NCBI RefSeq assembly: GCF_030013205.1
Contig: NZ_CP122648.1
Reading direction: 5' to 3' (one strand)
From: Escherichia coli
GTDB lineage: Bacteria > Pseudomonadota > Gammaproteobacteria > Enterobacterales > Enterobacteriaceae
Length of the DNA stretch: 64,000 nt
Below, piece by piece: positions 63,425 through 64,000 of this stretch (position 1 is the first letter of the stretch; each line of letters opens with the position of its first letter). The notes beneath the pieces were generated by a model. It searched no databases and had not been told where the DNA came from. It saw only the letters and a list, made by a program, of their open reading frames with translations. The position numbers and the translations under genes are program-made.

Positions 63425-63727
63425 TTAACGGATCAACAGCCAGATCAGCAGACACGCCACCACCGGCACAGCAAAATCCATCAGGCTTGCCACATCCCAC
63501 GCGCGCGGATCAAAACCGCCCCACCACGGCATATTCATTCGCTTGCCATGCCCGAACATTTCAATCCAGCGATATTCTGCCTGGGTGTGTTCACGCGCAA
63601 TGAAGAACGTACAACCGGCTATCGCCCCGTAAGCCCAGTTCCCGGTAAAAAGACCAATCAGTAGCTGCGCAGCCACAGCACAAAGCGCATGAAGGAAAGG
63701 TGTTATATCCATTTTCATCCTACCCAA
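63425..63727 (-). CDS. hypothetical small inner-membrane protein
   Basis: 100-aa ORF with hydrophobic N- and C-terminal segments and a Trp-rich middle (MPWWGGFDPRAWD); no family recognised. Confidence 0.5.
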   Translation of the reverse strand: MGRMKMDITPFLHALCAVAAQLLIGLFTGNWAYGAIAGCTFFIAREHTQAEYRWIEMFGHGKRMNMPWWGGFDPRAWDVASLMDFAVPVVACLLIWLLIR

Positions 63728-63754
63728 TAAAACGGGGCGCTCGGCCCCTTAATA

Positions 63755-64000
63755 TTATTTAGACGCAAGCGCCGCCTCAATTGCAGATAATCTTTGTCTT
63801 AATTCTGCGTTTTCTTCTTCCAGTGCTGTTATCCTGTCGTCTGACTCTCTGGCTACCTGAACAAGCAAACCCGTTACGCCTGAGTAATCGACGGTATAGT
63901 ATCTTTCTCCCTCTTCTCCATCAGACCCATTGTCCCCGCTCTTGTACTTTATTGTGCTACCAACTGATTCAGGGATTGCATTAAGTGCCTCTTGCGCAAT
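63755..64000 (-). CDS. hypothetical protein, C-terminal 81 codons only (gene begins beyond window end)
   Basis: hand-translated minus frame ...YYTVDYSGVTGLLVQVARESDDRITALEEENAELRQRLSAIEAALASK*, heptad-like coiled-coil tail; hairpin ggggcgctcggcccc at 63732-63746 just downstream. Confidence 0.4.
   Translation of the reverse strand: MAQEALNAIPESVGSTIKYKSGDNGSDGEEGERYYTVDYSGVTGLLVQVARESDDRITALEEENAELRQRLSAIEAALASK

Follow-up and report, generated by a model that had tools for sequence, protein, structure and literature searches.

Two late genes beside prfC in Escherichia coli very probably belong to a defective lambdoid prophage, and one encodes a membrane protein of an uncharacterised family that accompanies phage receptor-binding genes

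The prfC gene is a documented integration target of Stx prophages and SXT/R391 elements; when the latter integrate, element-borne sequence replaces the first prfC codons and the gene stays intact. Phage genomes also have preferred places for accessory genes, and the maps of P2, P22, and lambda place such slots after the tail-fibre or tailspike genes (i.e., P2 Z/fun, the P22 tailspike-int interval with gtrABC, and the lambda b region). Among the fibres and spikes themselves, the Peptidase_S74 domain is an intramolecular chaperone, which aids trimerisation and is cut off once the trimer has folded. Small genes beside the receptor-binding gene have been described as well, including those encoding Llp of T5 and Cor of T1 and phi80, which stop re-adsorption or superinfection (PMC9586334; PMC11990801). 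The receptor-binding locus is a place where small coliphages also keep exclusion factors, and O-antigen-dependent phages have, according to the authors of the BASEL collection, no recognisable means of disabling their receptor (PMC11990801).

The locus considered here forms the end of a 64,000-nucleotide stretch (hereafter the window) of E. coli contig NZ_CP122648.1 (assembly GCF_030013205.1). The minus strand of positions 63425-64000 contains two open reading frames, both where a previous sequence-only reading had placed them (Table 1). That reading had held that neither is yjjG, the gene expected beside prfC, and that the island to which they belong continues past the window; both points are borne out, as E. 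coli K-12 has only yjjG, 90 bp, and prfC, with nothing between, and as the island extends for approximately 21.5 kb beyond base 64000. The part past base 64000 was read from a second chromosome; window positions 43300-64000 are identical to the E. coli K_EC180 record NZ_CP062203.1 at 20,701 of 20,701 bases, and this record was thus used as a stand-in for the window strain. Several swine E. coli chromosomes also carry DNA identical to positions 63300-64000, as found by megablast.

In the K_EC180 record, base 64000 is followed, according to the RefSeq annotation, by the rest of a 346-aa fibre gene, an 89-aa gene, a truncated stf-like gene, lom, and a frameshifted J; by a DUF1441 gene, a lysis cassette (two holin-like genes and an M15 peptidase gene), a tRNA-Gly gene, and the Q antiterminator gene; by a DUF968 gene, a KilA-N gene, a rusA fragment, ymfL, and cro- and cI-like regulators; and finally by yfdPQR-like genes and a tyrosine integrase gene, which adjoins yjjG at the far end of the prophage and beyond which lie yjjG, rimI, and holD. 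Genes are thus met in a lambda-like order (repressor/cro, Q, lysis cassette, J, lom, and side tail fibres). RefSeq annotates neither terminase nor portal nor capsid genes in the prophage of K_EC180, which hence has no head genes and has also lost most of its tail genes; together with the J pseudogene and the truncated stf-like gene, this indicates a remnant rather than a viable phage.

The 14-bp sequence GGGTGAGAAATAAT, which occurs once in the window (0 occurrences expected by chance), is the longest exact repeat common to the prfC/DinI and the int/yjjG junctions, and the element measures approximately 24.9 kb (about 24.85 kb) from this core at window position 60666 to the second copy beside yjjG. 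The start of the resident PrfC differs from the K-12 start, MTLSPYLQEVAKRR, and its first codons are phage sequence, while the original prfC start persists as a 69-nt remnant beside yjjG; K-12 MG1655, with its yjjG-90 bp-prfC arrangement, represents the empty site. We conclude that the locus is very probably a defective lambdoid prophage that integrated site-specifically into the 5' end of prfC, and that the two genes are the last of its late (tail-fibre) operon; this judgement covers what the locus and the two genes are, while the role of the smaller protein is a separate matter (see below). We found no evidence against prophage identity. The sequence-only reading had considered the choice between a prophage remnant and a defence island to be undecidable from the window, and had proposed sequence extension as a check; the extension, which yielded phage genes, an integrase gene, and a repeated attachment-site core, now points to a prophage remnant. 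At the prfC/yjjG locus, neither gene turned out to be a K-12 core gene under another name. The locus is ordinary, and so are its two edge genes, which are late phage genes with existing entries in RefSeq.

Table 1. Positions of the features at the prfC end of the prophage, in window coordinates
Feature	Position	Strand	Basis or remark
Attachment-site core GGGTGAGAAATAAT, 14 bp	60666..60679	+	Inside prfC, codons Ile-Ile-Ser-His-Pro; prfC-side prophage boundary
Phage-supplied first 16 codons of resident prfC	60680..60727	-	Translations at the junctions
Variable prophage cargo	60947..63317	+	Opposite strand to fibre operon
DinI-like gene	60947-61195	+	Pfam DinI
SLATT_5 two-TM effector	61418-61969	+	Pfam SLATT_5; PADLOC RTasSLATT, E 7.9e-57
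UG17-class reverse transcriptase (RT)	61941-63317	+	Pfam RVT_1; PADLOC RT_UG17, E 5.9e-159
Hairpin, two-way terminator common to the convergent RT and small genes	63381..63416	.	Fold energies, z-scores
Small inner-membrane protein gene, 95 aa	63425..63712	-	WP_001395372.1; PHROG 1443; last gene of late operon
Spacer between fibre and small genes, 42 nt	63713..63754	-	Short GC hairpin 63734-63748 and AGGA ribosome-binding site
3' end of 346-aa side tail-fibre gene	63755..64000	-	Stop codon 63755-63757; gene runs to about 64795 in the K_EC180 record

The two edge genes adjoin an RT/SLATT defence pair, and a small membrane protein is conceivable as an effector, which raises the question of whether the RT locus and the edge genes form one functional system in a non-phage defence island or among core genes. 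This explanation is extremely improbable and is already contradicted. The RT gene and the small gene converge on a strong hairpin that separates them, which agrees with the terminator that had been noted after the RT gene by the sequence-only reading; this hairpin folds with -21.3 kcal/mol on the plus strand, where it is followed by U5, and with -27.1 kcal/mol on the minus strand, and 0 of 200 shuffled sequences fold as well. The strong folding on both strands and the U-run on the plus strand indicate that it terminates transcription in both directions. This hairpin also marks the point at which other E. coli prophages cease to be similar, with many megablast matches beginning at window position 63379 (query base 80). 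Megablast places the fibre module, with which the small gene travels, in approximately 1,900 genomes, of which only about 256 also have the RT, and further prophages that share this fibre module have other genes in the cargo position. The small gene is also found in free phages that have no RT, its product matches no PADLOC model, and the flanks are those of a prophage with an integrase gene and attachment-site repeats. Based on its low GC content (33-44%, as compared to 54% for its neighbours), its location on the opposite strand, its presence in about 256 of about 1,900 genomes, and the end of similarity at the hairpin, the RT locus is cargo and not one system with the edge genes; the UG17 RT, SLATT, and DinI genes are interchangeable cargo that fills the interval from the late-operon end to the attachment site, outside of the fibre operon.

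With regard to the gene truncated by the window edge, homology searches identify it as a distal side-tail-fibre subunit. The 346-aa protein matches phrog_4563 ("tail fiber protein") over its full length (E 7.8e-200), and Pfam PF13884 (Peptidase_S74) matches at residues 227-278 with 47.4 bits (cut-off 22). The motif SDRDLKENI, which includes a Ser-Asp pair, occupies residues 227-235 at the start of this domain. A search of PDB sequences with the whole fibre gave nothing at E <= 0.01; the fibre aligns weakly with the tip of the phage S16 long tail fibre (6F45, E 0.032), where SDRDLKENI stands opposite SSDRRIKKDI. By analogy to other proteins with this domain, the C-terminal approximately 120 residues of the fibre would be an intramolecular chaperone that cleaves itself off at the Ser-Asp pair near residue 227. 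The in-window part comprises 81 codons (63758..64000), which encode residues 266-346 of 346, and as the Peptidase_S74 part starts at residue 227, all 81 residues would lie in the disposable chaperone. The description of this piece in the sequence-only reading, as an 81-residue C-terminal part with a coiled-coil tail, was a fair one, given that the last approximately 30 residues of the fibre align weakly with designed coiled coils.

The second gene had been described as encoding a 100-aa membrane protein with a Trp-rich core. The longest open reading frame (63425..63727) indeed encodes 100 aa from a TTG at 63727, and the protein has a Trp-rich loop; the most likely start is nevertheless the ATG at 63712, which yields 95 aa, of which 6 are Trp. 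This start is favoured as it is preceded by AGGA 5 nt upstream, is the RefSeq start, and corresponds to the Met-Asp at which homologues begin. A dual-start arrangement with Met-Lys-Met-Asp, as in the holin gene S of lambda, was considered and rejected; the first ATG overlaps the ribosome-binding site and the homologues do not have the motif. A promoter of its own, as in a classic moron, was also rejected, since a promoter scan found no promoter-like site in the 42-nt spacer, and since the spacer hairpin, although it appears terminator-like in a scan, folds no better than shuffled sequences (z -0.82).

The 95-aa protein matches phrog_1443 with residues 1-95 on profile positions 1-95 of 97 (E 3.4e-58). 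Relatives fall into 566 clusters at 90% identity (342 representative clusters at 50% identity); they are stand-alone proteins of approximately 90-110 aa and are all named "hypothetical". A comparison of the window copy with the copy of the P22-like phage JEP4 gave a dN/dS of 0.17, and the value across 52 distinct E. coli alleles was the same, indicating that the gene is under purifying selection; together, the full-length phrog_1443 match, the 566 clusters, and the dN/dS establish the small open reading frame as a real gene. In an AlphaFold2 model (pLDDT 93.8), helices span residues 4-23, 26-53, and 74-94, and the protein is, as modelled, a three-helix inner-membrane protein of phrog_1443 with unassigned function. 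Residues H8, R40, E41, Q44, E46, R48, W72, and P83 are conserved in the family, with the amphipathic segment GRE(H)xQAEYRWI at the end of helix 2 and the Trp-rich loop being the most conserved part. Lys and Arg residues average 5.25 in the conserved loop and approximately 1 in the C-terminal tail, which is 0-8 residues long; under the positive-inside rule, this rule-of-thumb charge count predicts that the N-terminus and the conserved loop are cytoplasmic (N-in/C-out).

Further searches gave no lead from outside the family. No family in Pfam (E <= 0.1), NCBIfam, or PADLOC matches the small protein, and the family profile, when run against PDB sequences, retrieved nothing better than a chance match (E 1.8). 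Foldseek searches against viral models yielded nothing at E <= 0.001, other fold matches being generic helical ones, and literature searches with the RefSeq accession, the conserved motif, and the PHROG identifier found no paper. A lipoprotein of the Cor/Llp type was rejected as a candidate, given the absence of a conserved lipobox and a Cys at position 11 that is not conserved in the alignment.

The genomic neighbourhood of the family is the most telling result; its genes almost always sit directly after a receptor-binding gene, across unrelated phage types. In lambda-like phages, the order is an stf-like gene, a 93-aa gene, a fibre gene, and then the small gene, as in the J-lom-stf-93aa-fibre-95aa module of the lambda-like phage 2G7b, and E. 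coli prophages integrated elsewhere in the chromosome have the same module, there followed by other genes. The small gene stands between the tailspike gene (with a 4-nt overlap) and int in P22-like JEP4, after a tailspike with an SGNH esterase in another prophage, after J in a Comamonas prophage, between a fibre-assembly gene and a sheath gene in Halomonas phage phiHAP-1, and between fibre and baseplate genes, inside the tail operon, in HP1-like prophages of Leclercia and Aeromonas salmonicida. On environmental viral contigs, a large same-strand open reading frame lies directly upstream in 74 of 80 cases, and at least 46 of these 74 match tailspike families. Exceptions include an Aeromonas jumbo phage, in which the small gene follows a terminase-like gene, and some chromosomal copies in non-phage settings. 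Of the latter, one is found in a core region of Aeromonas, two genes from MsbB-like lipid A acyltransferase genes, and another follows, at a distance of 38 nt, the gene for a KdsD/KpsF-type arabinose-5-phosphate isomerase; the genes near these copies are thin hints of an envelope-directed role (see below). A role as a fibre-assembly chaperone was rejected, as the product is an integral membrane protein by prediction and as the lytic phage HC6 keeps its fibre despite a decayed small gene.

One explanation for this distribution is that the small gene is a functionless passenger, dragged along by recombination with the 3' ends of fibre genes in E. coli prophages. The state of some copies is consistent with such an origin; HC6 retains only a 51-aa fragment after an S74-type fibre gene, the copy in E. 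coli FDAARGOS_497 has an internal stop, and similarity between prophages stops just past the small gene. By contrast, the dN/dS of 0.17 that was found both against JEP4 and across the 52 E. coli alleles, the retention of length and invariant residues in members with only about 31-40% identity, and the occurrence of the exact protein sequence on 266 contigs are not what is expected of a passenger, and we thus judge this explanation to be quite improbable. About one in three complete E. coli genomes encodes the small membrane protein.

A second explanation is that the small protein is a component of the lysis cassette, i.e., a holin, an antiholin, or a lysis-timing partner, which would be found after the fibre gene because lysis genes often end late operons; in the lambdoid and P22-like phages of E. 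coli, the gene would then be a leftover carried with the fibre module. The size and the three hydrophobic helices of the protein would fit, and so would the neighbourhood in a number of environmental contigs, where the next same-strand gene encodes an endolysin in 15 of 44 cases and phrog_1544, an approximately 160-aa membrane protein, in 12 of 44. On one such contig (L149), a tailspike gene, the small gene, genes for two transmembrane proteins of 55 and 61 aa, and an endolysin gene follow each other with all starts overlapping; on another (L093), the small gene overlaps a phrog_126 holin/antiholin gene, and in Aeromonas phage 62AhydR11PP a phrog_1544 gene precedes it. Against this stands the sequence of the protein, as the query matches no holin family in Pfam or PHROG, with 1 of 32 members reaching E 0.0036 against Phage_holin_8, a value below threshold; it has no charged C-terminal tail, and the charge count gives an orientation opposite to that of class I holins. 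Its polar motif is strictly conserved, which is unusual for holins. In addition, other holin candidates are present in every phage examined, and in lambda-like, P22-like, and P2/HP1-like genomes the small gene stays with the fibre gene and none of the genes next to it is a lysis gene; approximately 7.5 kb separate it from the lysis cassette in the window prophage (K_EC180 record). The copies in non-phage chromosomal settings also argue against a lysis function, which we therefore consider unlikely.

The explanation that we prefer, and put forward tentatively, draws on analogy with Llp and Cor; the small protein could have an envelope-directed or phage-entry role, either in superinfection exclusion or in receptor supply. 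Made with the late genes, it would act from the inner membrane, with either the cell envelope or phage entry as its target, and it would be for phages with glycan-binding fibres or spikes what Llp and Cor are for porin-binding phages. A more specific version, which we regard as doubtful, is that the conserved cytoplasmic loop binds or inhibits a conserved inner-membrane step in the assembly of LPS or surface glycans or in phage DNA entry, with the consequence that the cell would stop displaying the receptor or stop admitting related phages. In that case, the small protein would supply the equivalent of Llp and Cor that O-antigen- or LPS-dependent phages have so far been missing. Since it is conserved while the fibres and spikes encoded upstream vary, it cannot be receptor-specific in the way that Llp and Cor are, and Pfam and PADLOC searches found no similarity to known exclusion families (T4 Imm, SieB, and Llp/Cor). 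Exclusion in particular has counts against it, as the overlap with the tailspike stop codon in JEP4 and in many environmental phages implies late expression and not expression in the lysogen. Other observations that speak against exclusion are the relatives in which the small gene heads a run of small membrane genes ending in an endolysin gene, and the location of the jumbo phage copy after a terminase-like gene.

The present analysis settles the nature of the island beside prfC, which is a decayed prophage with an RT/SLATT defence pair as swappable cargo at its end. The lead worth keeping, a modest one, is an uncharacterised family of membrane proteins, phrog_1443, that travels with receptor-binding genes and spans lambda-like, P22-like, P2/HP1-like, and many uncultured phages. 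It represents a cheap candidate for a receptor-disabling role in O-antigen-dependent phages, which is the gap pointed out in PMC11990801.

Compared with the described systems, the window element resembles SXT/R391 elements and some Stx prophages in its integration into the 5' end of prfC, and differs from SXT/R391 in being a lambdoid prophage remnant in E. coli with a 14-bp core of its own. Its fibre shares the Pfam domain, a Ser-Asp-Arg-x-Leu-Lys motif, and a helical C-terminal end with the S74 fibres and spikes (the K1F endosialidase, the T5 L-shaped fibre, and S16 gp37); unlike these, it is short (346 aa), its similarity to solved examples is marginal (E 0.032), and its cleavage is a predicted one. 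The small gene occupies the same position as the accessory slots after the tail-fibre genes of P2, P22, and lambda, while its product is unrelated to GtrA or to any described slot product, and in HP1-like prophages the gene belongs to the tail operon and not to a cargo slot. The small protein shares its length of approximately 100 aa and its three hydrophobic helices with class I holins (e.g., lambda S), and some relatives are encoded upstream of endolysin genes; by contrast, it has a long conserved polar loop, no charged C-terminal tail, the opposite predicted orientation, and no holin match at the Pfam threshold, and its gene lies far from the lysis cassette in the window prophage. With Llp and Cor, the small gene shares the location directly beside a receptor-binding gene; however, Llp and Cor are lipoproteins of the outer membrane, each of which blocks a single specific porin, while the phrog_1443 protein has three predicted membrane helices and no lipobox, is not similar to them in sequence, and is encoded after many types of fibres and spikes. 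The fibre module as a whole resembles gp22-gp25 of the lambda-like Escherichia phage 2G7b (Nesevirus), where J and lom are followed by an stf-like gene, an approximately 90-aa gene, a 345/346-aa S74 fibre gene, and a gene for a membrane protein of approximately 95 aa; the DNA of the fibre and small genes is 79% identical between this phage and the window prophage, and the small proteins are 97% identical. Unlike 2G7b, the window prophage has a broken stf-like gene and a J pseudogene and would hence produce no working fibre set. The genes that follow the module also differ, being a methyltransferase gene, a hydrolase gene, and ompT in 2G7b, and the RT, SLATT, and DinI genes in the window prophage.

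Directly 3' of its 859-aa fibre gene, whose product ends C-terminally in a coiled-coil tail like that of the window-prophage fibre, Escherichia phage HC6 retains a piece of a small-protein-family gene that is decayed and lacks annotation, RRANIPWWGGFDWRAWDLPSLLD; this suggests that the small gene is carried along in exchanges of fibre 3' ends. The small gene of E. coli FDAARGOS_497 contains an internal stop codon, in a prophage that adjoins appY/ompT and has a fibre module matching that of the window prophage and intact apart from the small gene. In the window prophage, the stf-like gene 5' of the fibre gene is split into a 138-nt N-terminal pseudogene and a following 429-aa ORF, whose PHROG match is confined to family positions 369-793, and a complete side fibre therefore cannot be made.

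The phrog_1544 protein, about 160 aa long, is Gly-rich at its N-terminal end and has membrane helices at its C-terminal end. Of 44 environmental viral contigs, 12 show translational coupling between its gene and the small-protein gene; an Aeromonas phage has the two genes in reversed order. The phrog_1544 protein may be a functional partner of the small protein, or a holin. Outside phages, members of the small-protein family are located 38 nt 3' of a KdsD/KpsF-family arabinose-5-phosphate isomerase gene, and two MsbB/LpxM-like lipid A acyltransferase genes are found two genes away from the Aeromonas rivipollensis copy. Going by these neighbours, the family may be tied to Kdo/lipid A synthesis, or the proximity of isomerase and acyltransferase genes may be coincidental. 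The small-gene ORF itself begins Met-Lys-Met-Asp, resembling the dual-start motif of lambda holin S; because the ribosome-binding site and the first ATG overlap, and homologues do not conserve the motif, this likeness was treated as coincidence.

Locations of features in the window, in sequence past base 64000 (L001 and L002, from K_EC180 record NZ_CP062203.1) and in other genomes or viral contigs
Feature	Location	Remark
Replaced prfC start	window 60666-60727	
DinI-like gene, 82 aa	window 60947-61195	same strand as SLATT/RT; between attachment site and SLATT/RT pair
SLATT_5/RT pair	window 61418-63317	
Small-gene start	window 63712-63727	
stf-like gene	L001 21509-23263	beyond window
LPS core heptose(II)-phosphate phosphatase gene	L001 26811-27386	prophage cargo beyond window
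tRNA-Gly	L001 28954-29028	prophage cargo beyond window
DUF6731 gene	L001 30468-31409	prophage cargo beyond window
DUF4365 gene	L001 39462-39860	prophage cargo beyond window
prfC relic	L002 5130-5198	
phrog_1544 gene	L098, L101, L102, L129, L135, about 4264-4760	environmental contigs
phrog_1544 gene	L005 2993-3496	Aeromonas phage
Acyltransferase genes/small gene	L007 6001-9645	A. rivipollensis
Isomerase gene/small gene	L089 630-1950; L090	non-phage
Small-gene fragment	L094 3465-3620	HC6
Small gene with stop	L184 4486-4779	FDAARGOS_497

At the insertion site, the first 16 prfC codons have been swapped for prophage sequence, such that the resident PrfC has a different, prophage-supplied N-terminus in place of the native MTLSPYLQEVAKRR; the promoter region upstream of the gene is phage-derived, and a 69-nt relic of the original prfC start is kept adjoining yjjG.

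Among the cargo, the DUF4365 product weakly matches a PADLOC restriction-endonuclease-like profile (E 1.4e-4). The SLATT_5 and RT genes overlap by 29 nt and have a GC content of 33-37%, much lower than that of the adjoining genes; the pair, which matches the PADLOC profiles RTasSLATT and RT_UG17, is a candidate defence system that the prophage carries as cargo.
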